From an uncultured Methanoregulaceae archaeon (lineage in GTDB: Archaea; Halobacteriota; Methanomicrobia; Methanomicrobiales; Methanospirillaceae): DNA of 64,000 bases. The DNA lies in the NCBI GenBank assembly GCA_963717525.1, contig OY970343.1:1344001-1408000 (forward strand). Direction: 5' to 3'. Position numbers and translations under genes: made by a program. Shown piece after piece: positions 41,635-56,232 of the stretch (position 1 is the stretch's first letter; each line of letters opens with the position of its first letter). Below the pieces are notes generated by a model. The model saw nothing but the letters and a program-made list of their open reading frames with translations. It ran no database searches and was not told where the DNA came from.

Positions 41635-42456
41635 TTACCGCACAACCGCCGACGCATGCGCATCGAACGGGTTTGTCCGCATCGCAAGGGAGAACAAGTA
41701 GGGATAGTGCATCTTCAAATGGCGCATGTAGGTCAGCCATTCCATGATCAGCAGGCCGTAGACCCGGTTAATATCTCCTGAAAGATGGGCGAAATCCGAT
41801 GCCGGGAGGTCAGTGAGCTGATCGCGTGCCGCCAGCTCTTCAGTGAGGTGAAAAACTGCCTGGAGGAGAGGGGTGAAGCCTTCGTTTTCGATAATCTGCG
41901 AGTTCTCGAAGAGCGTGAGCAGGATACTCTTGTGTTCGCGCAGGAATCTGTCCAGTCCGGGAAGGTCAAGAGTCCTGCTGTCCAGCATATTCCTGTGATG
42001 CTGAAGGTTACCGGAAGCGCGGGAAAAGTCTTCCTCAGTCCACCTGTCTGACACGACAAGTGCAGATCGTACCTGGTCAGATTTAGGGTCTTTCTCAGAG
42101 AAGCGCCGCAGCAGGCCGTTACCTACTTCGGAAAAAAAGACCCCGACCAGCAAGTTGAGATTCCGCAACCGCACAGACCGCTCCCTGTTCTCGATCATCA
42201 GGTCAAGGCTTGATGCAGCAAGGCCCACAAAACAGCCGACCCCGACAAGGATAATTCCGATCGTGAGCAGTTTACCGGCATCTGTCACCGGGTGGATATC
42301 CCCAAAACCTACCGTTGAAATGGTCACGACGACAAAATAGAATGCGTCAAGTGGGGTCCGGTTTTCAAAGGTCATCATCCCGAACATACCTACGAGAATG
42401 ACGACGATAAGTATCGAGAGGTAGATACGCAAACGGAGATGGATGGTTTTGGTCAC
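41635..42456 (-). CDS. 2-TM potassium channel family protein
   Basis: Pore DAFYFVVVTISTVGFGD; GTG start at 42456 (the longer ORF overlaps the tRNA). Confidence 0.88.
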   Translation of the reverse strand: MTKTIHLRLRIYLSILIVVILVGMFGMMTFENRTPLDAFYFVVVTISTVGFGDIHPVTDAGKLLTIGIILVGVGCFVGLAASSLDLMIENRERSVRLRNLNLLVGVFFSEVGNGLLRRFSEKDPKSDQVRSALVVSDRWTEEDFSRASGNLQHHRNMLDSRTLDLPGLDRFLREHKSILLTLFENSQIIENEGFTPLLQAVFHLTEELAARDQLTDLPASDFAHLSGDINRVYGLLIMEWLTYMRHLKMHYPYLFSLAMRTNPFDAHASAVVR

Positions 42457-42510
42457 GTACGAGATTATATACACCCGGATATATAGGGATTCGTCTGCCG
42501 GGAACAATGA

Positions 42511-42583
42511 TACCCCCGACCAGATTCGAACTGGTGTCGCCGGATCCAAAGTCCTGCATGATTGACCGCTACACTACGGGGGT
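42511..42583 (-). tRNA. tRNA-Gln(TTG)
   Basis: Reverse complement ACCCCCGTAGTGTAGCGGTCAATCATGCAGGACTTTGGATCCGGCGACACCAGTTCGAATCTGGTCGGGGGTA; A1:U72 pair typical of archaeal tRNA-Gln. Confidence 0.95.
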
Positions 42584-43162
42584 CCTCGACGATAAGACCA
42601 CTAATCTAACAATTTTCAGATTTCGTGGCTATGTCCCTGTTATATCATTCTCTGATCTCAAAAAAGCATTGATAACCAGACAGGTTATGGGAAATCCGGG
42701 ATGATGGCCGGATCGAATGGAGACCTTGCCAAGTATTTTCGGTCTGAAAGGGGGATGAGATTATTTTCCCACCTGTTTCCCTATTCAGGAAGGCAGGTTT
42801 CACTGGGATACGGTTGGGCACCGCTTGCGAAATTATGCAGCGGAAAAAGGGGAATGGATCCCTGGTTTTTGTAAAAAGAGGAAAAATGGGAAATTTTTGG
42901 AAAATGGAAAATAAAATTCCGCTGCTCCACGAGATAAATACATTATTTATCGTTCCCATTAATTTCGGAAAAATGTGGAAAATCCGGATTTTTTTATCAT
43001 AAAAAACAGCCGGATTTTTTGAGATTGAGCGCACGAAAAACAGGCAGCAGGATCACCCACAAAACCAGAATTCATGAAAACGGAAATGGAAAAAATCCGC
43101 CATTTGTCCGGATCCGGTCTAATTCGGAAAAATATTAAGAAAAACCGGGCCAAAAAACCCCA

Positions 43163-43192
43163 ATTTAGTGTATAGCATCATACGGTTTATAT
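43163..43192 (+). repeat. 30-bp inverted repeat, left copy
   Basis: ATTTAGTGTATAGCATCATACGGTTTATAT; 29/30 identical to the reverse complement of 45962-45991. Confidence 0.9.
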
Positions 43193-43398
43193 ATAGTTAC
43201 TATAATTCTCAAACAAGGGAGAAAAACCCTAGATAAATGCAGTATTCCGGGAAAAGAACCCCAATATAAGGATTTTTAAGAAATTGCGAAATAGTGTAGG
43301 AATGAGGAACCGTTACGTATTCGTACATCTTTTCCCGTGGGAAAATCTGACGGGCGCAAGTGAACCTGGCTTATCAGGAAGAGAGGATAGGAGAATTT

Positions 43399-44320
43399 TC
43401 ACGAGTTTTCGTTATCGCTGGAGAGCGGGAAGAACTGCTGGTAGACCTGGCGGCGTTCATCGATATCTGTATGCAGGTAAATTTCCGTCGTCTTTATGGA
43501 GGTATGGCCAAGATTCTCCTGCACAACCCGGAGATTCTTGGACCGGCGGTACAGTTCGCTTGCATAGCTGTGACGGATCTTGTGTGGGGTGATACCAGGA
43601 GGGGCATAATATTTGAAAATATGCTGGATAGCCCTCGGAGAGATGTGCTTACCCTGCTGACCGATAAACAGGGGACCATCGATCCTGTTGCCCGCAAAAG
43701 TTCGGATCCCGGAGAGTGTCTCATCATCGACGAAAACAATCCGGATCTTGTCCCCTTTCCCGCGGATACGAATGGTATGTTCATCGAAATCGATATCTTC
43801 GATATTCATGTTACAGAGCTCGAGATACCCGGACGCCAGTCGAGTAGATCGTTCTTACGATCAGTTTATCCCTCGGATCCTCGATAGAATCGATCAGGCG
43901 GAGTACCTGGTTATGCTTGAGGTATTTTACCTCCTGTTGTTTGATCCGGGGACGTTCAATACCGCTGAGAGGGTTTGCCACAACAGCTCCTTGGGTTGAG
44001 AGAAACCGGTAAAATGAGCTGAGGGTAGAAATAATCCGATGAAACGTTTTGGGTTTATAGGTGCGCATCGTGGAGACAAACGAGAGAAAATCGGTTATCA
44101 TGGATGGCGGCACGTCAACGCTTGTATCAAGCCGGGCATTCTCAAAGTCCTTCCAGAAGAAGACCAGCTTGGTTACTTCGGTATGCCTGCGGAGCCAGAC
44201 ATAATAGCCGAAATGCTTGATCACCTGTTCATAGCTGTCAAGGGTCCGGGAAGAATAGTTGCGCATCCGCAGGTAATTTCGGTAACTTTTGAGCCAGTCC
44301 GAAAAATACCCGCTTCCCAT
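43399..44320 (-). CDS. Xer-type tyrosine recombinase (XerA-like; one +1 frameshift ~43823)
   Basis: N-terminal SAM-like domain (NYSSRTLDSY, ISTLSSFYRFL...NP); all catalytic residues after rejoining: TGVRVSE, GKGDK, HKIRH, LGH, TTEIY; about 306 aa. Confidence 0.9.
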
Positions 44321-44353
44321 GGTCTAATCTTTTTTATCTCAAATTAATAAAGG

Positions 44354-44381
44354 TTTGCGCAGAATACCTATTCTGCGCAAT
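44354..44381. other. dif-like recombination site (11-6-11)
   Basis: TTTGCGCAGAA-TACCTA-TTCTGCGCAAT; arms 10/11 inverted; 33 bp upstream of the recombinase start and next to its TATA-like box. Confidence 0.7.
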
Positions 44382-44880
44382 CCTGAAATTCCAAAAGAGG
44401 GGCAGATTCACGGTATTTGGAAGTTGCAATTCAGTGAATTGATCATCTCATTATTCCATTCAATCATGAAGTTTTGGGGGACATACCCATATGCAACGGC
44501 CATCTACTCAACGGTATGCTGGTTTCTTTATTCATTCTCATCTTAAGAGCAAAAAGGGCGTTTTTTTCATTTTCACCATACTTTTGCTCATTCAGTCGTA
44601 CTAATGGGCTGGAAACGCTGCTATTGCAATCTACCGTCGAACGTGGTCTCCGAGGAGGCCTTTGTAACCCAGCCTGATAAAAATTACCTGATAACCGGAA
44701 TCAGGTATACAACGGGATGCTGAAAACCATTATAGCAGAAACCGGATATTATGCACTACAATTTTCCAAAATGTGGATTATTCCAGAATTTCCAAAATTT
44801 CTCCGCCGAGGATATCTGGATTTCCCTTATTTTTCCCAATGTGAACTGTCCAGAACCTGGCCTACAATTCCGATATTTTT

Positions 44881-45507
44881 TCATGATTTACCCATCTCCT
44901 CACGTTGCGAATTATGCCGGTACAGCGTTGTATAATGGATATCCAGAATCCGGAAAATTGCCGCAATGAGGATATTTTTCCCCTGTAATTCCTGTATACG
45001 TTTCCACGGGATGACCCTTTTTTGCCTGCCGAGCGTTACCCCTTCCGCTTTCGCCCGGGCGATACCACGTGTTGTGCGTTCGATCAGATTTTTCCGTTCA
45101 TGGTCAGCAATCCACGAGAAGATCGAGAGCATAAGATTCCATAGTTTTTTATCTTCAATTCTGCTCCAGGATTCGGCTCGAGATAACGACCAGCCCCGGG
45201 TCCCGGATTCTCCGAGAGAAAGAAGCATATTCAATGTGTTAAGAAAGGACCGCCCCATCCGCGAAATTTCAAAAAAATACAACATGATTGGTTTCCCGGG
45301 ATGCGCCCTTATGAACTGGATCATGAGGGAACATCCTTCACGGTTCTGCATGGTGGAGATTCCCGACACAGGATCTACATAGATTAAATCCCGTGAGAGC
45401 CCTTCCTCAAGCAGAATCCTGATCTGATTCTCGACATTCTGATTTTCCCGGGAAACGCGGACATGGTCAAAAGGGGGATAAACATTTGGGTATCTTAAAT
45501 CGCTCAT
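44881..45507 (-). CDS. Serine recombinase, resolvase/invertase type
   Basis: HVRVS (catalytic Ser), Q..ENQ, SRMGRS, ADHERKNLIERTTRGIARAKAEGVTLGR, C-terminal HTH ending TTLYR. Confidence 0.85.
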   Translation of the reverse strand: MSDLRYPNVYPPFDHVRVSRENQNVENQIRILLEEGLSRDLIYVDPVSGISTMQNREGCSLMIQFIRAHPGKPIMLYFFEISRMGRSFLNTLNMLLSLGESGTRGWSLSRAESWSRIEDKKLWNLMLSIFSWIADHERKNLIERTTRGIARAKAEGVTLGRQKRVIPWKRIQELQGKNILIAAIFRILDIHYTTLYRHNSQREEMGKS

Positions 45508-45961
45508 TTTTGATTAATAAAACCGGGAAAAACATGCCCTAAAATGGAAAAATAAACATCGCATCGACGATTTGTATTTGGAAAATCTGGATTTATCCGG
45601 ATAGTGATCGATTCAAGTTCGCTCGATTGTTAGCCAAGAAAACAGGGGGGGCGTTAGTTTAAAAGAAATGAAGGGGTTCCACAGACAGTAACCAGAAACT
45701 GTCTCACTGAACACAAAAAAAGACAATAAAACGCCGCATCTGCCAATTACAGACTCAAAAAGTTTCCTGTTTTTCTATCGTAAACGCGCCAGATAAGCCA
45801 CAAATAGCCATAAATTCGCAATAGAAATCTCTTCCCAAGAGAGACGTTGAGGGTGTTTGCCTGGGAAAACGGCAAATTCCATATCATCCGAACCAGTCAA
45901 AAATTCCGAAATGCAAAAGAATTTTCTATAAATCCCCCGATAAATTGAAGATTTTTTATTG

Positions 45962-45991
45962 ATATAAACCATATGATGCTATACACTAAAT
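45962..45991 (-). repeat. 30-bp inverted repeat, right copy
   Basis: ATATAAACCATATGATGCTATACACTAAAT, the reverse complement of 43163-43192 with 1 mismatch. Confidence 0.9.
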
Positions 45992-46275
45992 GAACAGATA
46001 TTATCTTAAACTAAGGAAAAAGATTAACGGGAAAAACCGGAGGGGATATGCTCGAAGGCACATATTTTTCATAATGAGAGTAAGAGCTACAACAAAAGAG
46101 AAGATATGGAAATATGCAAAGTGGCCTCTGGTTTTGATCAGAACATCTGCAACCATTGACATTTAATAAGCAGCATCAGATCGCGAAAAGATCCGTTTAT
46201 CCTCAATTCAAACTTTAGGTAGAGAATACGAAGCCAAACAATTATGGTATTAAAGGGAACCATTGGTAATGTAGT

Positions 46276-46632
46276 ATGACAACGGACAACCAGTTCTTAA
46301 GTACAAACGAGGTGGCGAAGATCCTTGGTGTTCACCAGAAAACCGTCCACCACTGGCTCCGTACCGGAAGGCTTGTCGGCACAAAAATCTCCTATCGCGC
46401 CTGGCGGATCTCTCGTTCGGCATTGGAAGATTTCATCGAACAGAACAGTAATGTACATTCAGGAAATACAATCCCGGCATCACGTGAATCTGACAAAAAA
46501 ACACCCCATACTAAAAATCAGGGAGACAGTGATCTCCCTGGAACTTCTGGAACCCGTCCCGGAACAGAGATGAAACACTATATCCGGGATATCATGGGAG
46601 AAGATAGCAACATGCAAAAAAACAATGGGTAG
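46276..46632 (+). CDS. Excisionase-like / HTH_17 DNA-binding protein
   Basis: FLSTNEVAKILGVHQKTVHHWLRTGRLVGTKISYRAWRISRSALEDF followed by a low-complexity tail. Confidence 0.85.
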   Translation: MTTDNQFLSTNEVAKILGVHQKTVHHWLRTGRLVGTKISYRAWRISRSALEDFIEQNSNVHSGNTIPASRESDKKTPHTKNQGDSDLPGTSGTRPGTEMKHYIRDIMGEDSNMQKNNG

Positions 46633-47109
46633 CCGAATCGGCCGTTTTGATTCAATTTTTGATTCAATAATAGAATAATACTAACGGTTAACGATAACAA
46701 AACAATACAAAAAGATACAATATTCCTGAATCAATAAAAGGCGGGTAAATTCCTGGTAAAACACAATCCTCATACAGGGGTGGCTTTTAGGAGAGTCCAA
46801 TCCAGAGCATTACTCCATCTCCCCCACATGCATCATTGTCGATATCCCCCCACTTTACAGATTCACAGCGAACAGGGATTGGAGAACAGATAAAACGCCT
46901 GAAACGCATTTATTTCCTAGCCGCACCGGAAGCCAAGAGAGAATTGATTCGAACACTTCTGAATTCAGAACATATTCATAATTGTCCCCCCTTTTTCCCC
47001 GTGGATAAACCGCATACTGCTATATACAAATGGGATCTAACTAGTAACCAGAACAGAAAGACAACAGTCGTTCATTTTACGTTTCACCGACAAAAACAGG
47101 ATGATCTTC

Positions 47110-47898
47110 ATGGACGATGACAGCCAGAATGAGATTAACAAATATAAGAAATTCAAAAAAGTAGACGGGGCTACCTACCGGAAAGTCAACCAGTTCCTGC
47201 GTAAACGCACCTATATCACTGCGAGAGAATGGGCGCTTGCACGGCTGTGTACTGATTTCAGGACATCCGGCGGCGCCGAGATGACCTTTATCGGAAAGCA
47301 TCTCCCGGAACTGGTTCCCTTCATGGAGGAGCCGTATTCTCCTCAGGCCGTCAACCAGGCCCGCCATTCGTTCAAGAAAAAAGTTCGAAAAGCAAGCGCT
47401 ACCTTCTTCTATGGGGCGATGTGCGGTTTTTTTACCACAGATGAACTTGATGACCTTCTTTTTGAAGCAAGCGAGGTCTCGCGTTTTCTTCTGGAGGTTG
47501 AGGGTACATCTCTCGATATTGACGAAGAGATTGATATCGAAGACCGCATCACCAAGGTGATGCGGAGCGTGGGAGAGACCGCAAAGACCATACTCACCCA
47601 AAGGACTGACAACACACCGCCAGATGAGATGAAACCCCAAAAACGAGCCGGTGAAGGTACCAGCCCTTCTCCAGAAACTTCATCAGAGATAACCCATGCT
47701 CTCCCGCTGCATATCCAAGCAGAAGATACCTCCATTCTCTCGGGCTCTTCAAATGAGGAACATCCAGACCATGAAACTCAAAAAAATTTGTTAAAGATTC
47801 CGATCGCATCCGAACTAGTGGACACATCTTCATCAGGGAAAAATAATTCAAATCTGGATGATACAAACCGTTCCCATAACCCTGAAGAGGGACAGTAA
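47110..47898 (+). CDS. Conserved archaeal protein, DUF5806-like, with disordered C-terminus
   Basis: KYKKFKKVDGATYRKVNQFLRKRTYITAREWALARLC...FFYGAM; family name from recall, not from a search. Confidence 0.7.
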   Translation: MDDDSQNEINKYKKFKKVDGATYRKVNQFLRKRTYITAREWALARLCTDFRTSGGAEMTFIGKHLPELVPFMEEPYSPQAVNQARHSFKKKVRKASATFFYGAMCGFFTTDELDDLLFEASEVSRFLLEVEGTSLDIDEEIDIEDRITKVMRSVGETAKTILTQRTDNTPPDEMKPQKRAGEGTSPSPETSSEITHALPLHIQAEDTSILSGSSNEEHPDHETQKNLLKIPIASELVDTSSSGKNNSNLDDTNRSHNPEEGQ

Positions 47899-47900
47899 TC

Positions 47901-48311
47901 ATGAAAATTATCCCGGTTACCGGTCTTGCGAACTCAGGGAAGACCTCGTTCATCCGGAATCTCATCCCCGTGCTGAAATCTTATGGAAGCGTGGGCGTGA
48001 TCAAGCATCTCGGGGATCATGAGTACCGTCAGGAAGAGGGGAAGGATACAACCGTGTTTTTTGAGAACGGGGCTGATATCTCGGCGGGCATCGACTCCGG
48101 TAAATCCGTCGTTGCCCTCCGCACAATCGATCTGGATGTAATACTCCTTCTATTCAAACAGCAGGGGATCGATTTTGCAGTTATTGAAGGGTTCAAAACG
48201 CGCGATTTCCCGAAGATCATTATAGGGGATCTCCCCAGTGATACCTGCATCCTGCGAAACCCAACCGCTGATCAGGTTGTTTCCTCACTCACCCGGTTCG
48301 AAGATTATTAA
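47901..48311 (+). CDS. mobB: Molybdopterin-guanine dinucleotide biosynthesis protein B
   Basis: GLANSGKT, VGVIKH, GKDT, VIEGFK. Confidence 0.88.
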   Translation: MKIIPVTGLANSGKTSFIRNLIPVLKSYGSVGVIKHLGDHEYRQEEGKDTTVFFENGADISAGIDSGKSVVALRTIDLDVILLLFKQQGIDFAVIEGFKTRDFPKIIIGDLPSDTCILRNPTADQVVSSLTRFEDY

Positions 48312-48341
48312 AATGCAAAAACCCGATGAATCTTAACGAAA

Positions 48342-49715
48342 ATGGCAATAAAAAAGATCCAGAAACAGCTCTTTGGAACAAACGGGGTCCGGGGAATCGC
48401 AGGAAAAGAGATTACTCCGGAGCTCACTCTCCATATTGGTAAAGCGCTTGGCACGATGCGACCAGGACAGATCGCGGTCGGCCGGGATACCCGGACCACC
48501 GGCCCGGTCCTTGCCAATGCGCTCAAGGCAGGACTTCTTGCAACCGGGTGCGAGGTTATTGATTGTGGCATATTACCGACGCCTGCCCTTCAGTACATCG
48601 TAAAAGAACACTATGACGGAGGGGCGATGATCACAGCCTCTCACAATCCTCCGGAGTATAATGGAGTGAAAATTATCGAACCTGACGGGACCGAGATGGG
48701 TGATGAAGAGACCATCCGGCTCGAAGAGCTGCTGTCAGATCATTCAATACCGGTCAGACCCTGGAATCAGGTTGGAACAGAGGTGACAGCTCTCCATCTG
48801 GTCGACGAATATATTCATGCTGTTGCCAGCCAGTTTGAAGAAAATATTGGAAGAGGAATGACGATCGTGGTTGATCCCGGATCCGGCCCGGCCTGCCAGA
48901 CCACCCCGGCAATCCTCCAGGCGCTGGGATGCCGCGTGCTTACCATCAATGGAGTTATGGATGGGACGTTTCCGGGGCGTTTACCGGAGCCTTCCCCGGA
49001 AGGCCTCGAAGGGCTTGCCGCACTGGTTCTGGCAAGTCACGCGGCATTCGGTGTCGCCCATGACGGTGATGCGGACCGGGCCGTGTTCATCGATAACAAA
49101 GGCGTTTTTGTGGAAGAGAATGATGAATTTGCACTCATTGTACAGCATATCTGCAAAAACGCGAAAGGCATAATTGTCACACCGGTCAGTACCTCCCAGG
49201 TAGTCGAACTGGTTGCCGTTGCCGCAGGATGTACTGTGCAGTACACCCCGGTCGGAAGTATCTATGTCGCCCGGACCATGCGTCAACTCGTAGAAACCGG
49301 AAATCCAGTGATATTCGGAGGAGAAGGCAATGGAGGTCTGATCTTCCCGAACCATCAGTTCTGCCGCGATGGTGGAATGACCGCTGCAGCGATGGTCTCG
49401 CTTCTTGCTGAAACCGGCAAGAGTCTGTCATCACTCATCGGGCAGTTGCCGAAGCGGTATATGATAAAGGAAAAGATCTCAACAACCCATGGAGCACAAC
49501 TTATCGAAGGACTCGGAAAATACTATGAAGGGGAGTCTGTTGATCATACAGATGGCCTGAAAATCAAAAGGCACAAAAAGTGGGCATTAATCAGAGCTTC
49601 TGGAACAGAACCACTTGTCCGCATCATGGTGGACGCCGCTGAGCGCGATGCAGGACTGGATCTGCTTTCTGAAATAAAAACATCGGTCTCTGAGATCCTT
49701 GACGAACTCCCGTGA
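48342..49715 (+). CDS. glmM: Phosphoglucosamine mutase / phosphohexomutase
   Basis: LFGTNGVRG, ITASHNP, DGDADR, GGEGNGG, RASGTEP. Confidence 0.88.
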   Translation: MAIKKIQKQLFGTNGVRGIAGKEITPELTLHIGKALGTMRPGQIAVGRDTRTTGPVLANALKAGLLATGCEVIDCGILPTPALQYIVKEHYDGGAMITASHNPPEYNGVKIIEPDGTEMGDEETIRLEELLSDHSIPVRPWNQVGTEVTALHLVDEYIHAVASQFEENIGRGMTIVVDPGSGPACQTTPAILQALGCRVLTINGVMDGTFPGRLPEPSPEGLEGLAALVLASHAAFGVAHDGDADRAVFIDNKGVFVEENDEFALIVQHICKNAKGIIVTPVSTSQVVELVAVAAGCTVQYTPVGSIYVARTMRQLVETGNPVIFGGEGNGGLIFPNHQFCRDGGMTAAAMVSLLAETGKSLSSLIGQLPKRYMIKEKISTTHGAQLIEGLGKYYEGESVDHTDGLKIKRHKKWALIRASGTEPLVRIMVDAAERDAGLDLLSEIKTSVSEILDELP

Positions 49716-49950
49716 GCAGGGGGCATTTCCTTCTGGTATCAGGATGATGGAGATAATCAATTTTTTTATAATTATAATATGTTCGATGGGGGATGTTTTA
49801 ATAGAACGTAACAAATAGACCGAAAAATCATTAAAATACAGATTTTGCAAAAATTTCAATGGAAATTCAAAAACAGAACTAATTTATGATTTATTGAAAA
49901 CACAAATTATATAAACTATTTGAGTTAATGTCACTTTGCTTCAATGATAA

Positions 49951-52900
49951 ATGCAACAACAGAGTGGCGTAATGATCCTATCTGCAACAGTTACAGAAAA
50001 AATACGACAGGCTCTCCTTAAGAAAGACTGGGGAGGGATCGATACAATTGTTGCCGACTCATTGCGGTTTAAGGAAAAACGGGCCCGGGCGCTGATGCAG
50101 CGAACCGTAAATGAGGTCATCCTTGATAGTGCAATTCAGAACAATATACCTGAAACACTCCTGGCAATTCGTACTATCCCTCCAGAAGGTGTGGATGATT
50201 TTTTCTTGATGGTTTTAAAACAGTATATAAAAACGGGAAATAAAAAATGGTTTGACATACTCTTCGTTCTCTCGGAAAAACTGGGAAAAAAAAGTTTGCA
50301 ATCAAAGATTGTCGCTCGCGTCGTGCAGGAACTCATCTCAGAAGGGATCACTGAATCTGATCCCTCATATATCGAACGTGGATTGGCAGTTTTGAATAAA
50401 ATCACGTTCAGGAAGTACCGGTCGGATTGTATTGTTGAATCTGCATTCAAAATCACCAGGTGGACAATTCTCAGTGGTAATAGTAAGCTTCTCTTCCAGG
50501 TCCGTGACCTTATCAGCGGGATTAAGGATGTATCAAAACGGGCGGCATTGCATGCAGAGATAGCACAAGCACTGGCCGCAATAGCAATTAAAAACGGAGA
50601 TTTCCACCTCTTTCTTGAAAGCATTCAATTCACGGCAGAAATTCACCAGAAACTCCGAAGGAGAGACTGCCTTAACCATATTATCAGCACGGGAATGAGA
50701 TCATCTTTTGGAAAAGATCTTCTTGATGTCCGTGCACTTATTACCCATTTTGAAGAACTCCCTCGTGATATTCAGGAGGAACTGATCAACTCCCTGACGG
50801 AACAACTTCTGGAACGGGTAAAAAATAAAAATCAGATCCATGATGATTTCCATTTTCTCAATAAGAAACTGCCCTTTGTTCGTGACCGCCTTATACAGAA
50901 TCTCTTGAAAATGGCAGAGCGATCCGGTGATCCGTGGTATCTTACAACTGCCGTTGACTTCCTCAAGGACAACCTGTCAGAAGAGAAGTCCGGGGTCAAA
51001 GATATCGTTCGGACGGGGATTGCCGTAGCCAGACATACCCACTCAACTCAGGTTCTTGTTAATCTTATACCGTTTGTGGAAAAAGCATGCAGCCGTCATG
51101 AAACCCCGGCGATCTATCTGCAGTTTTCGCAAATTATGCTGGAACTGGGAGATTTTGACCGTGCCACCACCTTGTTTTCCCAGATAATACCTCCTTATGA
51201 AAGTTCACCCCAGTATTGCGTCTGCCTTGCAAAATTACTCGAAGAGGGGATATCACATGACCAAGGATCGTCACAATTTGAGGAGATGCTGGGGAAAAAT
51301 AATCCTGCGGTCATTTCAAATGCCATATCCCAGACGATTCACCAGATCGGTCATGTTTCACGGTTTGGAGATATTGTAAAACACAGTGGTTCGTTAAAAC
51401 AGCTCCTGACCCTGCATACAGGATATGACGCCGATATCGTAGATTTTATCACAGCCCTGACAAACCGGGGATTTCTTGATTCCTGTGATTCTTTTATCCT
51501 GGTAGATCTTGCAAAATTAATCCAGAACCCATCGGTCAGGGAACAGGCAATATCAACCGTGGTGATGAAACTCGCGGAAATTGGCGTGAGAACCGGAAAC
51601 CGTGATTTTCTCCAGCAAGCCGTGGGGATCACCTGTCTGATTGAGAGGAGGGAAATCCGCTCTTCAACCCTGAGCAGCATCATTGACGACGCAGCTCTTC
51701 TTGCTGCTACCCAGGGGGACCTCGATCTCCTGTTACGAATGCGAATATGGAGCAGTTCCTTTCTGGACGCCGGCCTTGTAGCGTATGCAATTAAAAACAT
51801 TATAGAAGGAGTGATAAAATACGCAACCAGCAAACAGGATCCTGATGCCCTTGATGAAGCGTACCGCATCGCTCAGGATATAGAGGATCCATCGTTGCGC
51901 TTACAGATGTGCGAGCGCATCGCTGAGTCGTTTGTCAAGATAGGTTGCGACCTTATACAGGATCTCTCCATTACACAGACGAACCAGGTGAATACCACTA
52001 TCTTGTTAAAACCTTTTAAAAGAAGCCTTCAATTGTTAAAGGCCGAGGTGAAAAAGCCCCAGATCTCTTTGAAAATTGCCGGAATGATTGACATAATACT
52101 CTTCTCCTCAAAAAAGAGCACCGGGCGAGATTACATTCTTCCTTTGGCATTGTATTCCCTAGAGATAGAGAAACCCCTGGAACGCAATGCCATGATGTCG
52201 CGGATAATCGCCAAACTCAGCGAGGATATTGTTTATCCGGACTCCGCAGATCCCTACGAAGTCCTTGCGTACATTCTCCAGAACTGCTATCGCCTGAAAT
52301 CAACTCCTGAAACTATTGACCTTATTCATCGACTTCTTGATCTCATGCATGATCCCTTTATACGCCTCAGGGAATTGTGCACCCTTGCAGATTCAGCCTT
52401 CCGGATAAACGATCTCGTTCTATGCCAGAAAATTCTCGACGAGGTTTATCTGGCTCTCCCAAGTCTTCCCGCAGAATACCAGAAAATCCTGATTCTCGCG
52501 GATTTGACCACCGGATTTCGCGAGATCGACATGGAAAAATCAAGACTCTGTTTACATGAAGGGCTGGATATATTGCGGTTTGTGGAGCCTGACCGGAATA
52601 CCCTCGTACGCCGGCAGTTGGTATCCGCAATTGTCCGTACGGGCACCCTGCTTCCTGAAAAAATCAGGATGGATCTTATTTTAGAGATAATAGAAAAAAT
52701 CTCCGATCCGATAGAATATGTAACAGCACTCATTTCTGCATACTCCCTGGAGCGCGAATACAGGGGTGAAAATACCCTGCATCACATTTCAGAAGCAATC
52801 GCGCGAATTGACTCTCCGTACGACCGGGCCATACTTATTTTAAAAATCGTACCTCTGGCACTACAGAACGGCGAGGACGATTTTGCCCTTGACCTGTTGG

Positions 52901-53532
52901 ACAAAGCAGAAAAATTATCAAAATCCATAAACATCCAGCATGTGGCTGATTCAATACGCGATGAAATTGCAGGAATTCTGGTGGATTTTTCCAGAAGGCA
53001 GGGGGATTCAAAATATCTGAAAAAATCAGCGGAAATTATTGCACTTATAGAAGATGATTATTTACGTCAGTATCGTCTGGCCCAGATAGGTTTTGAGGAT
53101 GCACTGGAAAATAGCGTCCCCCATACAAAAATCATGTCAATCCTGACACGGATTAATAACGGGGGAGCGCCCGGGCAGATTATGACACTTGAACAGACCG
53201 TCCGTTCCATTACCGATCGGGGGAAAAGGGCACTTATCTATTGCAGGCTCTCCATTCTTTCCCGGGATAAGGCGGATCTGAAGACAGCAAAACGGATGTT
53301 AAATAATGCAATAAAAGAATCGGATATAATCAGACCCCTTTCAAAAAGGGCATACATACGATGTGATATCGCGATAAAGATGTATACTGCAGGTTATGAG
53401 AGCGTTGCACAGGATATCCTTGACGATGCAATAGATGCAGCTACAAACATCAGGCAGTCCATTCTCCGGGACGAGGTCTTTAATGAATTAAGGCTTGCCA
53501 TGAGAGTAATGCAGGGAGGCGGGCAGGAATGA
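49951..53532 (+). CDS. 1193-aa alpha-helical repeat (TPR/HEAT-like solenoid) hypothetical protein
   Basis: Recurrent A..I.D...R...L..IA-type units (e.g. AYRIAQDIEDPSLRLQMCERIA, AIDAATNIRQSILRDEVF); no TM or catalytic motif recognised. Confidence 0.8.
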   Translation: MQQQSGVMILSATVTEKIRQALLKKDWGGIDTIVADSLRFKEKRARALMQRTVNEVILDSAIQNNIPETLLAIRTIPPEGVDDFFLMVLKQYIKTGNKKWFDILFVLSEKLGKKSLQSKIVARVVQELISEGITESDPSYIERGLAVLNKITFRKYRSDCIVESAFKITRWTILSGNSKLLFQVRDLISGIKDVSKRAALHAEIAQALAAIAIKNGDFHLFLESIQFTAEIHQKLRRRDCLNHIISTGMRSSFGKDLLDVRALITHFEELPRDIQEELINSLTEQLLERVKNKNQIHDDFHFLNKKLPFVRDRLIQNLLKMAERSGDPWYLTTAVDFLKDNLSEEKSGVKDIVRTGIAVARHTHSTQVLVNLIPFVEKACSRHETPAIYLQFSQIMLELGDFDRATTLFSQIIPPYESSPQYCVCLAKLLEEGISHDQGSSQFEEMLGKNNPAVISNAISQTIHQIGHVSRFGDIVKHSGSLKQLLTLHTGYDADIVDFITALTNRGFLDSCDSFILVDLAKLIQNPSVREQAISTVVMKLAEIGVRTGNRDFLQQAVGITCLIERREIRSSTLSSIIDDAALLAATQGDLDLLLRMRIWSSSFLDAGLVAYAIKNIIEGVIKYATSKQDPDALDEAYRIAQDIEDPSLRLQMCERIAESFVKIGCDLIQDLSITQTNQVNTTILLKPFKRSLQLLKAEVKKPQISLKIAGMIDIILFSSKKSTGRDYILPLALYSLEIEKPLERNAMMSRIIAKLSEDIVYPDSADPYEVLAYILQNCYRLKSTPETIDLIHRLLDLMHDPFIRLRELCTLADSAFRINDLVLCQKILDEVYLALPSLPAEYQKILILADLTTGFREIDMEKSRLCLHEGLDILRFVEPDRNTLVRRQLVSAIVRTGTLLPEKIRMDLILEIIEKISDPIEYVTALISAYSLEREYRGENTLHHISEAIARIDSPYDRAILILKIVPLALQNGEDDFALDLLDKAEKLSKSINIQHVADSIRDEIAGILVDFSRRQGDSKYLKKSAEIIALIEDDYLRQYRLAQIGFEDALENSVPHTKIMSILTRINNGGAPGQIMTLEQTVRSITDRGKRALIYCRLSILSRDKADLKTAKRMLNNAIKESDIIRPLSKRAYIRCDIAIKMYTAGYESVAQDILDDAIDAATNIRQSILRDEVFNELRLAMRVMQGGGQE

Positions 53533-53822
53533 AAACCCTTGAGATTATAATAACCGGCAGAGTACAGAAGGTAGGTTTTCGTGCCTGTGCAAGAAAGATC
53601 GCCATAGATCTCAATGTTACCGGTACGGTTATGAATCTCGCTGACGGGAAAGTTCAGATCTATGCATCCGCAGACCCAATTATTCTTGAAAAATTCATTT
53701 CAATGCTCTATAGTTGCCCACGAGCGGTGATAAGGGATATGCACGCAACGGAAATTCTGCCAAGAACCTATGCAGAATTTTCTATCATCAAAAATAATGG
53801 AAGAATCAGTACATTACTGTAA
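53529..53822 (+). CDS. acyP: Acylphosphatase
   Basis: GRVQKVGFR (canonical GRVQGVGFR), GTVMNLADGKV; ATGA overlap with the upstream gene. Confidence 0.88.
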   Translation: MKTLEIIITGRVQKVGFRACARKIAIDLNVTGTVMNLADGKVQIYASADPIILEKFISMLYSCPRAVIRDMHATEILPRTYAEFSIIKNNGRISTLL

Positions 53823-54738
53823 AGTCTTCCATTTTTTGAATAACTTTTAAAAAATTATTCACCTGGTTATCGAGTTTTTGATTGTCGATAGATTTTCTAA
53901 ACGCAGAGATCAGATTTTTTATTAAGTTATCCGAGAGCATGCACCGTGAAGAGGTTTGTTCAAAGTCCCCAGGTTTGAGGGAATCCCGGGCGATGCTGCA
54001 TACAACGTGATCGATCATCTCCGCCTTGAAAGGTCCGATAAAATCCCGTACAAGCGATCCTGGGCCCTCATGCAAAAGGCCGAGATCGGGATCCAGCCGG
54101 GCGCCAATGACAGAGACGCAGCAATTCCCAAAGAGCATCGCATAGCCAAACGAGAAAATAGCATTGATAGGATCGCATTGCGGCTGCATCGTTCGCCTCC
54201 TGAAATCGAAACATTTGGGGATATCCCTTGACAGGATCTCATAATACATATTTGCCGTAAGGTCAGATAACCGGCGGAGTTCATCCGGTTTTTCCAGATT
54301 CTCGAGATCATGGAGGGCATTATGCAGGATCTGCTGTTCACCCTCGTAAAAAAGATGTGATCCACGCTGCTCCTGAAGAGTCTCGATCGCGATCAGCCGG
54401 GATTTAAGAGAAGCCTGTGCAATGGTTCTCGCGTACCGATGCCGGGGCAAGTCCTCCTGCAGGTGTTGAATTTGTTTGTCATGAGCATTTCCAAAGGGTT
54501 TTAGGATTCCGACGGGAGTGCCATCAGGTTCAAAAAATGAGATATACGACCCGTTTCTCAGCAGATGAGAGATGGTTGTCGAGCTCAGGTGATGTCCCCC
54601 CACAATGAGGAGATTCTTTATCTCATCAAGCGGGTATTCTTCGACACTTCCATTATGGAGGACAATTAATTTTTTTTGCGTGGACTTGATGTGAGCCCCA
54701 AACCCATACACTGCCAGCCAAGGGATCGTTCGTGACAT
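53806..54738 (-). CDS. cas1: Solo Cas1 homologue, catalytically degenerate
   Basis: Cas1 pattern throughout (YPLDEIKNLLIVGG, ISFFEPDGTPVG, FRRRT..P..DPINAIFSFGYAML, LDPDLGLLHE, SLVRDF); no cas2 or array nearby. Confidence 0.9.
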   Translation of the reverse strand: MSRTIPWLAVYGFGAHIKSTQKKLIVLHNGSVEEYPLDEIKNLLIVGGHHLSSTTISHLLRNGSYISFFEPDGTPVGILKPFGNAHDKQIQHLQEDLPRHRYARTIAQASLKSRLIAIETLQEQRGSHLFYEGEQQILHNALHDLENLEKPDELRRLSDLTANMYYEILSRDIPKCFDFRRRTMQPQCDPINAIFSFGYAMLFGNCCVSVIGARLDPDLGLLHEGPGSLVRDFIGPFKAEMIDHVVCSIARDSLKPGDFEQTSSRCMLSDNLIKNLISAFRKSIDNQKLDNQVNNFLKVIQKMEDFTVMY

Positions 54739-54935
54739 AAATGCCCGTGTGAAAAAGATTGATTTAATCTACATAGTGCCCTTTTTTTCCTGATTAAGGC
54801 ATCGCTTTTGGTCATTAAATCCACATAAACAATAGTTCATTGTTAATTTCTGCAGATTATGTTCACCTGTGAACGAAGAAGTATAAAGGATATAAGAAGC
54901 CATACGTACAGTGTCATGCAATAGCATAACAGGTG

Positions 54936-56232
54936 ATGCGGATGTTCTGGGATAAAAAAATGGAGACGCTGAAACCTGCGGCTCTCAAGGCTCTTCAGCT
55001 GAAGCGTCTGAAAAAAACCCTTCACGCAGTACAAAATGTTGAATTTTACCGGAAACAGTTTGAAAGCGCCGGGGTATCTGCTGCAGATATCAAGACTCTT
55101 GAGGATGTCAGGAAATTACCCTTCACTAAAAAACAGGACCTCCGCGATGGCTATCCTTTCGGGTTCTTTGCGGTCCCGATGCAAAAAATTGTTCGGATCC
55201 ATACAACCTCCGGGACGACCGGGAAACCCACCGTAGTCGGATATACCCGCGGGGATCTGGATACATGGGCAAATCTTATCGCCCGGAACATGACCATGAT
55301 CGGCATTGGTGAGAACGACATCTTCCAGAATATGGTCAATTACGGGATGTTCACCGGCGGACTGGGGTTTCATTACGGCGCAGAACTGATAGGGATGACC
55401 GTGATCCCAAGTGCAACAGGGAATAGCCGACGCCAGATTGAGATGATTCGCGATTTTGGCGTTACTGCCATCCATTGCACACCCAGTTATGCGATGCATC
55501 TGTCCGAGGTTGCCGAAGAGATGGGCGAAACCCTTGAGAGCCTGAAGACCGGTATTTTCGGGGCTGAACCCTGGTCGGATACCATGAGGCATACCCTCGA
55601 AGAACGTCTTGGTGTTACAGCATTCGATTCATACGGTATGAGCGAACTTTTTGGCCCGGGTGTCGCATTTGAATGCCCCGAGCGGGACGGCCTCCATATA
55701 TGGCACGACAGCTTCCTGGTAGAAATCATCGATCCAAAAACCGGCGAATGTCTCCCCGACGGGGAACGGGGCGAGATGGTGGTGACACCGCTGGTAAAAG
55801 AGGCCATGCCGCTCGGTACGCTACCGGACCGGTGATGTCACCATGCTCATGGAAGACGGGTGCCTCTGCGGCCGGGGGAAAAAGATCGCACGGCTGCGTG
55901 GAAGAAGCGACGATATGCTGATTATTCGTGGCATCAACGTTTTCCCATCCCAGATTGAACATGTCCTGCTCAGGATTCCGGAAGTCGGCAATCAGTTTAT
56001 GGTATATATAGACAGAATCAATCATCTGGATGAGATGACCGTGGAAGTCGAGATAAACAGGAGCTATTTCAGCGGGGAACTAGCAGAGCTTGCCAAGATC
56101 CAGAAAAAAGTGGTAAAAGAACTGCACGATACCCTTGAACTGAGGACAACTGTAAATCTGGTAGAACCGGGTTCGCTACCCAGGTTCGAGGGGAAAGCCA
56201 AACGGGTCATCGACCGGCGGGGTGATATCTGA
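54936..56232 (+). CDS. paaK: Phenylacetate-CoA ligase family protein 1 (frameshift ~55820)
   Basis: HTTSGTTGKP, YGMFTGGLG, GAEPWS, YGMSE, GRSDDMLIIRGINVFPSQIE. Confidence 0.88.

Follow-up and report, generated by a model that had tools for sequence, protein, structure and literature searches.

A Cas1-solo (group 1) protein of Methanomicrobiales with an incomplete integrase site, kept under selection outside CRISPR systems

Cas1 is the signature integrase of CRISPR (short palindromic repeats that are clustered and regularly interspaced) adaptation and of casposons. To our knowledge, no case other than Cas1-solo group 1 has been described where a whole archaeal order kept the Cas1 fold after losing the integrase chemistry. 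The subject of this work is one such gene, located on the minus strand at positions 53806..54738 of a 64,000-nt stretch of contig OY970343.1 from an uncultured Methanoregulaceae archaeon; this whole stretch is called the window hereafter. We read its product as an integrase-dead, selected, CRISPR-independent binding protein, with a probability of about 75%, a figure which leaves the ligand out. Two groups of Cas1 proteins encoded outside CRISPR loci are presented by Krupovic et al. (2014; PMC4046053), who cite Makarova et al. (2013). In the passages of that paper used here, group 1 is found only in Methanomicrobiales, without horizontal transfer and with an incomplete active site, and the passages used from a 2023 review (PMC9939771) repeat the restriction to this order and the lack of horizontal transfer. 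Group 2, the casposases, is described in the same passages of PMC4046053 as keeping all four catalytic residues and as belonging to mobile elements with PolB, terminal inverted repeats (TIRs), and target-site duplications. Full-text searches for literature on the function of group 1 found nothing beyond these two papers.

The window gene is a Cas1-solo gene of group 1, a kind already in print. The related locus L005 has a translation with 74% identity to the window protein, and by eye this translation corresponds to the visible part of the row for Methanoregula boonei 6A8 in Additional file 2 of PMC4046053, so the window gene is an ortholog of a published group 1 member. Its open reading frame (ORF) starts with ATG and comprises 310 codons and a stop, without internal stop codons. 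The protein matches the Pfam family PF01867 (Cas_Cas1) with an E-value of 3.3e-53 and 181.1 bits (cut-off 22.3), and the match is full-length, since residues 9-281 cover profile positions 2-282 of 283. The general NCBIfam cas1 model, TIGR00287, scores 149.3 bits (cut-off 71.7), and all nine subtype-specific Cas1 models of NCBIfam (I-A to I-G, II, and V) remain far under their cut-offs, the top scores being 103.4 bits (cut-off 560), 100.1 (385), 87.1 (385), and 85.4 (304.1). With the Pfam model, Cas1-solo proteins reach 161-186 bits versus 228-343 bits for the canonical Cas1 of the same genomes. A phmmer search against solved structures gave 19 distinct Cas1-type chains, with Archaeoglobus fulgidus Cas1 (4n06) at the top (E 2.9e-18). 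Furthermore, the AlphaFold2 model of the protein has a mean predicted local distance difference test (pLDDT) value of 93.1 and a predicted template modelling score (pTM) of 0.88, and its comparison with PDB by Foldseek, in terms of global scores only, gave only Cas1 or casposase chains among the matches listed (E-values down to 2.5e-18, template modelling (TM) scores up to 0.83). According to the secondary structure of this model, residues 1-85 form a beta-rich N-terminal domain (54484..54738, minus strand), and the model and the alignments place the degenerate active site in an alpha-helical C-terminal domain made up of residues 86-310 (53809..54483, minus strand).

The catalytic columns were mapped with three HMMER alignments to solved chains (4n06, 7mi4, and 7cr6), and the codons were checked. 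A second mapping, in which MAFFT was used to align the protein with 10 canonical Cas1 encoded in genomes of this order, agrees with the first. In both, Ser158 (codon 54265..54267) lies under the catalytic Glu (E141 in E. coli), the catalytic His (E. coli H208) is kept as His223 (codon 54070..54072), and in the segment Asp232-Phe-Ile-Gly235 (54034..54045) the first Asp is kept (E. coli D218; codon 54043-54045) and Gly235 (codon 54034-54036) takes the place of D221, all on the minus strand. The metal-binding set Glu-His-Asp-Asp/Glu is incomplete in the window protein and reads Ser158-His223-Asp232-Gly235, so that, as aligned, the canonical set is broken. The first description of this gene, a sequence-only reading, had counted two of three catalytic positions as substituted, which corresponds to two of the four residues in the list given in the passages used from PMC4046053. 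Its motif readings, LRRLSDLTANMYY (E to S), GLLHE (His kept), and DFIGPFK (E to G), are correct by these alignments, and its uninterrupted 310-aa Cas1 frame agrees with the ORF list and with the PF01867 and TIGR00287 matches. It had also named compensating acidic residues, together with integrase activity, as a finding that would speak against it. Asp159 was considered in this role and rejected, because its column is not conserved (R in 35 members, K in 8, S in 7, D in 3, Q in 3, N in 2, T in 2, A in 1, and L in 1, that is, Arg or Lys in 43/62); as judged from the alignments and not from three-dimensional geometry, this acid does not appear to compensate for the lost Glu.

The incomplete site is a feature of the clade. 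Among 62 distinct members, the Glu column holds H in 27, S in 20, F in 7, Y in 3, Q in 3, A in 1, and E in 1, and it is E in all ten canonical Cas1 of the order; nine different residues occupy this site across the members examined. The His is retained in 35 of the 62 and missing in 27, the first Asp (Asp232) is present in every one, and position 235 holds an acid (E or D) in 54 and G in 3. None of the 62 has the full four-residue catalytic set, and of these four canonical positions three vary freely in the clade. Since the protein is conserved despite the lost Glu, His, and last acid, the selected function cannot need those residues. The window protein and its nine closest relatives in the named set form a subclade in which all ten members read S-H-D-G. 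A distant member of the clade, L168, from a named metagenome-assembled genome of Methanomicrobiales, reads E-H-D-E by alignment, the whole canonical set, and is the one exception to the published statement of an incomplete site among 80 named sequences (79 readable loci and the window).

Regarding distribution, a search with the window protein as query gave a full-length, stop-free match in 148 of 151 genomes sampled from the order (33-81% identity). No match was obtained in three genomes, all of them fragmented assemblies (190-210 contigs) that scored 96, 62, and 95% complete. A phylum sample of 401 genomes, 67 of them in the six families of the order, was searched with a threshold of E<=1e-25; matches were found in 67/67 genomes of the order versus 1/333 others, and this lone outside match is a 27%-identical Cas1 of the canonical type. 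Beyond the phylum, bacteria and archaea were scanned with a single genome for each species, which gave 257 confirmed relatives. Among the best 80 of these 257, 77 are titled Methanoregula, Methanoregulaceae, Methanomicrobiales, Methanoculleus, or Methanomicrobiaceae, and two are titled 'Methanobacteriota archaeon'. A contig of 2,563 nt (L148), with a Cas1-solo 53% identical to that of the window, comes from a bin titled 'uncultured Draconibacterium sp.', and it is most simply an archaeal contig put in the wrong bin. A search of 1.84 billion representative proteins returned 26 at E<=1e-30; full-length matches of the clade type (at least 30% identity) score 111 bits or more, and those of the canonical type that come next (25-30% identity) reach at most 98.5 bits.

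A maximum-likelihood tree (quick search, LG+G4) of 48 clade members and 46 canonical Cas1 parts the Cas1-solo clade from canonical Cas1 with 100% support in the Shimodaira-Hasegawa-like approximate likelihood ratio test (SH-aLRT). Host-family labels change 8 times on the clade, close to the minimum of 6 and far from the mean of 44.8 obtained after shuffling, which argues for vertical descent of Cas1-solo.

The gene stands apart from CRISPR-Cas systems. The genome, a single contig of 2.288 Mb, has one PF01867 match and zero matches to Cas2 (PF09827); since it scored 87% complete by marker genes, this means that cas2 was not found and does not prove its absence. None of the 4 rows from Tandem Repeats Finder in the window is CRISPR-like, and a scan of the 2.288 Mb for 18-mers that occur three or more times with a spacing of 45-110 nt gave one hit, a repeat with a TACACCTACGCCTACTCC-type unit, which is not an array. 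Across the order, cas2 matches were found in 63 of the 151 genomes and none in the other 88, versus Cas1-solo in 148; some of these genomes carry canonical cas1 and cas2 besides Cas1-solo. Among 41 mapped loci, cas genes never adjoin Cas1-solo, and its presence in the window should not be annotated as a sign of a CRISPR-Cas system. An origin in a mobile element was also considered and rejected in view of the conserved synteny, the lack of credible TIRs, and the distance to PolB. PolB matches lie at 0.94 and 1.17 Mb of the genome, more than 170 kb from the window (1.344-1.408 Mb), and the inverted repeats between 44 and 64 kb of the window are all short (19-25 nt, 79-95% complementary), none of which plausibly brackets Cas1-solo.

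Cas1-solo evolves under purifying selection. The ratio of nonsynonymous to synonymous substitution rates (dN/dS), calculated with the Nei-Gojobori method, was 0.05-0.18 for the 40 closest pairs and 0.07-0.20 within the S-H-D-G subclade for pairs with a synonymous rate (dS) below 1.1. Between the window gene and its relatives dS is near saturation (1.2-3.0), with rough dN/dS values of 0.035-0.098, and the ratio of the uncorrected proportions (pN/pS) was 0.13-0.21. Two defective copies were also found. One of them (G053; L071 7941-8990, minus strand) is an open frame with no ATG, GTG, or TTG before its last 220 codons, which leaves the N-terminal domain without a usual start; the RRR and DPxN motifs and several invariant residues are gone, its branch is long (0.98), and the gene seems to be degenerating in that lineage. 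In the other (L173, one of the 80 named loci) the frame is interrupted and the open stretch has 148 codons.

These results can be set beside the remaining claims of the sequence-only reading. It had reported no cas2, CRISPR array, PolB, or TIR in the window, which is correct, and for cas2 and the array the search now extends to the whole genome with the same outcome. Its assignment to Cas1-solo group 1 is supported by the clade with its 100% SH-aLRT, the restriction to the order, the incomplete site, and the match of L005 to the published row. The Cas1 phylogeny that it had proposed gives a separate clade which follows the host families, and dN/dS, for which it had named a value near 1 as contrary evidence, is about 0.1 and far below 1. 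Finally, its suggestion of an exapted non-integrase role is backed by the near-universal presence of the gene, its independence from cas2, and the low dN/dS.

In the mechanism that we propose, a Cas1 homologue would have been fixed at the base of Methanomicrobiales and then inherited vertically, outside CRISPR adaptation. The protein would no longer cut or join DNA; it would work as a homodimeric, non-catalytic binding module which dimerizes via its conserved N-terminal domain. The ligand would be held by a rebuilt region at the old active-site helix, formed by R156, M164, E167, R171, R181/R182, and R265-C266, and this region would also keep the Cas1-derived residues D189, N192, D232, and D243.

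The conservation pattern shows where new constraints have appeared. W7, G12, G48, H49, G133, and E134, together with R156, M164, E167, R171, R181, R265, and C266, are invariant or nearly so in the clade and not in canonical Cas1, while Q94, Y165, R182, P186, D189, N192, Y199, D232, and D243 are invariant in both. In the N-terminal domain, the motifs specific to the clade are W7, G12, G14, G47-G48-H49, F68-F69, and P75-G77. Pairwise identity in the clade is 45.5% in the N-terminal domain versus 43.9% in the C-terminal domain, and the corresponding values in canonical Cas1 are 22.4% versus 31.5%. The block 221-240, which contains the old His and the DxxE motif, has the same conservation in the clade as in canonical Cas1 (0.64), and it is the sole 20-residue block in which the conservation of the clade does not exceed that of canonical Cas1.

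Regarding the dimer, the homodimer model scored 0.45 (0.45, 0.38, and 0.45 in the three runs), and the best of three controls scored 0.00; the contacts agree between runs by at least 53%, and the pLDDT of the partner is at least 80. The mark for a dimer was reached by 20/30 proteins solved as one-chain pairs and by 1/23 solved as single chains, calibration counts that are only rough here because a custom alignment was used for the model. Given the solved Cas1 dimers, this pass may reflect likeness to them. The predicted interface consists of residues 45, 47-54, 56-57, 60-61, 68, 70, and 75-82, and it includes the clade-specific motifs G47-G48-H49 and P75-G77 of the N-terminal domain.

Several observations weigh against the proposal. 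The window gene is 74% identical to that of locus L032, whereas the PaaK, DUF5806, ACT, and Hps fusion genes of the two loci are 87-95% identical, so Cas1-solo evolves faster than most of the neighbouring metabolic genes. The G053 and L173 copies indicate that some lineages, at least, can do without the gene. The E-H-D-E set of L168, the invariant Asp232, and the second acid kept in 54/62 members indicate that some members might still be active. Moreover, the charge of the protein has changed: the median isoelectric point (pI) of the clade (n=62) is 6.09, with a net charge of -5 and -7 in the C-terminal domain, and the values for canonical Cas1 (n=82) are 9.37, +8, and +7, respectively. Canonical Cas1 of the same order have a pI of at least 8.2 in 8/10 cases, and the median pI of the neighbouring ORFs is 5.74. 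With an acidic C-terminal domain, the broad basic surface that binds DNA seems to be gone, which counts against a nucleic acid as the ligand and makes a protein or a small phosphorylated molecule a serious alternative.

What is said about the ligand is weaker than what is said about the loss of integrase function. We lean, with confidence that falls a little short of even, towards a specific nucleic-acid end or branch in chromosome maintenance, and it is favoured because of the ancestry of the protein and the retained residues of the cleft (R182, D189, N192, Y165, Y199, D232, and D243). The main alternative, which we hold tentatively, is that the protein binds another protein or a small phosphorylated ligand. 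This alternative can be extended to a module that has left nucleic acids altogether and serves, in dimeric form, as a scaffold or sensor for either of these, a rather unlikely role for which the shift in charge of the C-terminal domain from +7 to -7, the pI typical of the proteome, and the equal conservation of the two domains, which is not seen in canonical Cas1, can be cited. However, the residues that canonical Cas1 conserves around the DNA cleft are kept.

One possible partner of such a module is encoded nearby. It is a TPR-like protein of 1193 aa (49951-53532, plus strand) without Pfam or NCBIfam matches, whose nearest clusters in the ESM Atlas are unnamed archaeal ones, followed by TPR-repeat clusters at 0.92. 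At E<=1e-10 it was found in 40/67 genomes of the order and in 0/333 others; it evolves fast (23-73% identity), and this order-restricted protein of about 1190 aa is encoded two genes from Cas1-solo wherever it is found, following it in 23/41 loci. Nevertheless, it was not found with this query in 27/67 genomes of the order which keep Cas1-solo, so it is not an obligate partner, and its gene is convergent to Cas1-solo and not in an operon with it.

It is improbable, in our estimation, that the protein is still an enzyme. Its centre would have been rebuilt from Asp232, Asp243, Asp189, and Glu134 or Glu167, together with the new arginines, and its chemistry would be that of a nuclease, a transesterase, or another phosphoryl transfer on a housekeeping substrate. 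The acids E134, E167, D189, D232, and D243 and the arginines R156, R171, R182, and R265 are indeed invariant in 62/62 members, and the complete tetrad of L168 points in the same direction. Nevertheless, canonical Cas1 shows the same invariance (10/10) at D189, D232, D243, N192, and R182, which may be structural, and the periodicity of helix 151-172 suggests that R156, M164, E167, and R171 lie on one face of it, away from position 158. The His missing in 27/62 members and the variety of residues at the old Glu site also argue against this reading.

Even less probable is a role as a non-catalytic accessory subunit of CRISPR adaptation, paired with a Cas1-Cas2 complex encoded elsewhere. The Cas1 fold, the predicted interface of the Cas1 type, and the genomes of the order that have canonical cas1 and cas2 are compatible with this role, but Cas1-solo is present in 148/151 genomes when 88/151 have no cas2 match, the window genome has neither a cas2 match nor a second cas1 or an array, and the gene never adjoins cas genes in the mapped loci. 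Finally, the idea that the gene is functionless and in decay, as the remains of a casposon or of a CRISPR locus that was lost, would account for the degenerate active site, the lack of cas genes nearby, and the defective G053 and L173 copies, but it has almost nothing left in its favour given a dN/dS of 0.05-0.2, a frame intact in 148/151 genomes and six families, the conserved synteny, the absence of PolB within 170 kb and of TIRs, and a model with a pLDDT of 93.

Going further than the integrase-dead binding protein itself, it is possible to speculate, although the idea is doubtful, that the former DNA cleft, acidic overall, now holds a rebuilt pocket of R156, E167, R171, R181, R265, C266, and E134, and that Cas1-solo is a dimeric, lineage-defining housekeeping protein whose pocket binds a non-canonical ligand or acts on it. 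Candidates for this pocket, each named with little confidence, would be a specific recombination intermediate, in an order whose sampled genomes gave no strong match to the resolvase Hjc, or a nucleotide-like signal. If true, no Cas1 derivative before it would have had a defined function in the cell that is unrelated to integration. The Hjc family of archaeal Holliday-junction resolvases (PF01870) has zero matches in the genome of the window and no more than weak hits in 25/67 genomes of the order (E 3.6e-6 to 9.4e-4, best 27.8 bits); many other families of the phylum have hits above 100 bits. A complementarity between Cas1-solo and Hjc was considered and is not supported as specific, because several families of the phylum without Cas1-solo also lack strong hits (0/52, 1/24, 0/15, 2/54, and 0/12 genomes).

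The neighbourhood of Cas1-solo is a housekeeping one, and nothing in it suggests defence or mobility. In the window, the neighbours are MobB, a phosphohexomutase, an acylphosphatase, PaaK-type ligases, an ACT protein, and an Hps/RraA fusion, and in other families archaemetzincin, an Obg-like GTPase, TBP, PolD, and thymidylate synthase are found. The acylphosphatase gene (53529..53822, plus strand; PF00708, E 2.6e-18) is convergent with Cas1-solo, and the 3' ends of both genes overlap by 17 nt (53806-53822). This tail-to-tail neighbour is present in 31/41 loci, with an overlap of 4-31 nt in 20 of the 31 and in five of the six families. It is a conserved neighbour of Cas1-solo, not established as a partner, and due to the convergent orientation the two genes cannot be co-transcribed. 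PaaK-type ligase genes are located at no more than 8 kb from Cas1-solo in 22/41 loci, and directly upstream and divergent in 9. The gene context was also examined as a source for the function of Cas1-solo, but it is uninformative, as the upstream neighbours vary by family (PaaK, arginine-deiminase-like, ABC transporter, and archaemetzincin).

As read from the sequence, Cas1-solo and the divergent PaaK-type gene of the window are separated by a spacer of 194 nt (54739..54932, minus strand), in which ATTAAAT at 54762-54768, 24-30 nt upstream of the ATG of Cas1-solo, is a possible archaeal TATA box. This PaaK-type gene, the first of two in tandem (54933-56232, plus strand), is broken into two ORFs, of 300 and 129 aa, which lie in different frames. 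The downstream frame continues the protein before its own ATG (from about 55816), and the relatives are single ORFs of about 430 aa. The split is consistent with a 1-nt frameshift near 55810-55816, which would be either a pseudogene or an assembly error. It was also observed that the G+C content is 0.43-0.49 at 42001-56000, the region with Cas1-solo and its syntenic neighbours, and 0.55-0.61 over 8-42 kb.

What is new here is the list of residues, the charge inversion, the distribution, and the selection, which make the function of group 1 testable and name the targets for mutation. A near-universal gene, under selection and independent of cas2, sharpens the question of this function. It should be noted that DNA-binding assays copied from canonical Cas1 may fail, given the charge-inverted C-terminal domain.

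Compared with the known systems, a precedent for a Cas1 that works with recombination and repair proteins is that of E. coli (YgbT), for which the passages used from a review (PMC5518543) describe sensitivity to genotoxins after cas1 deletion and a physical interaction with RuvB, but this protein is catalytically active and linked to CRISPR. With the casposases the window protein shares a Cas1 fold outside CRISPR, and its best Foldseek chain is 6opm_B (TM 0.83); unlike them, it has a broken site, a distant PolB, no TIRs, conserved synteny, and vertical inheritance. Its separation from the casposases, already made in the sequence-only reading, is supported by the lack of PolB or TIRs nearby and by the incomplete active site. 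With canonical Cas1, for instance PDB 4n06, it shares the full-length match, the two-domain fold, and the predicted dimer through the N-terminal domain, and it differs in the absence of the Glu, the last acid, cas2, and an array, and in its acidic C-terminal domain. The published group 1 is the closest of these systems: the clade and the host order are the same, the active site is incomplete, both have no CRISPR link and no sign of horizontal transfer, and nothing essential sets them apart. Unlike most members of the group, the lineage of the window has also lost the last acid (Gly235), which is kept in 54/62, and this extra loss is a local peculiarity, fixed and selected in a subclade of ten members.

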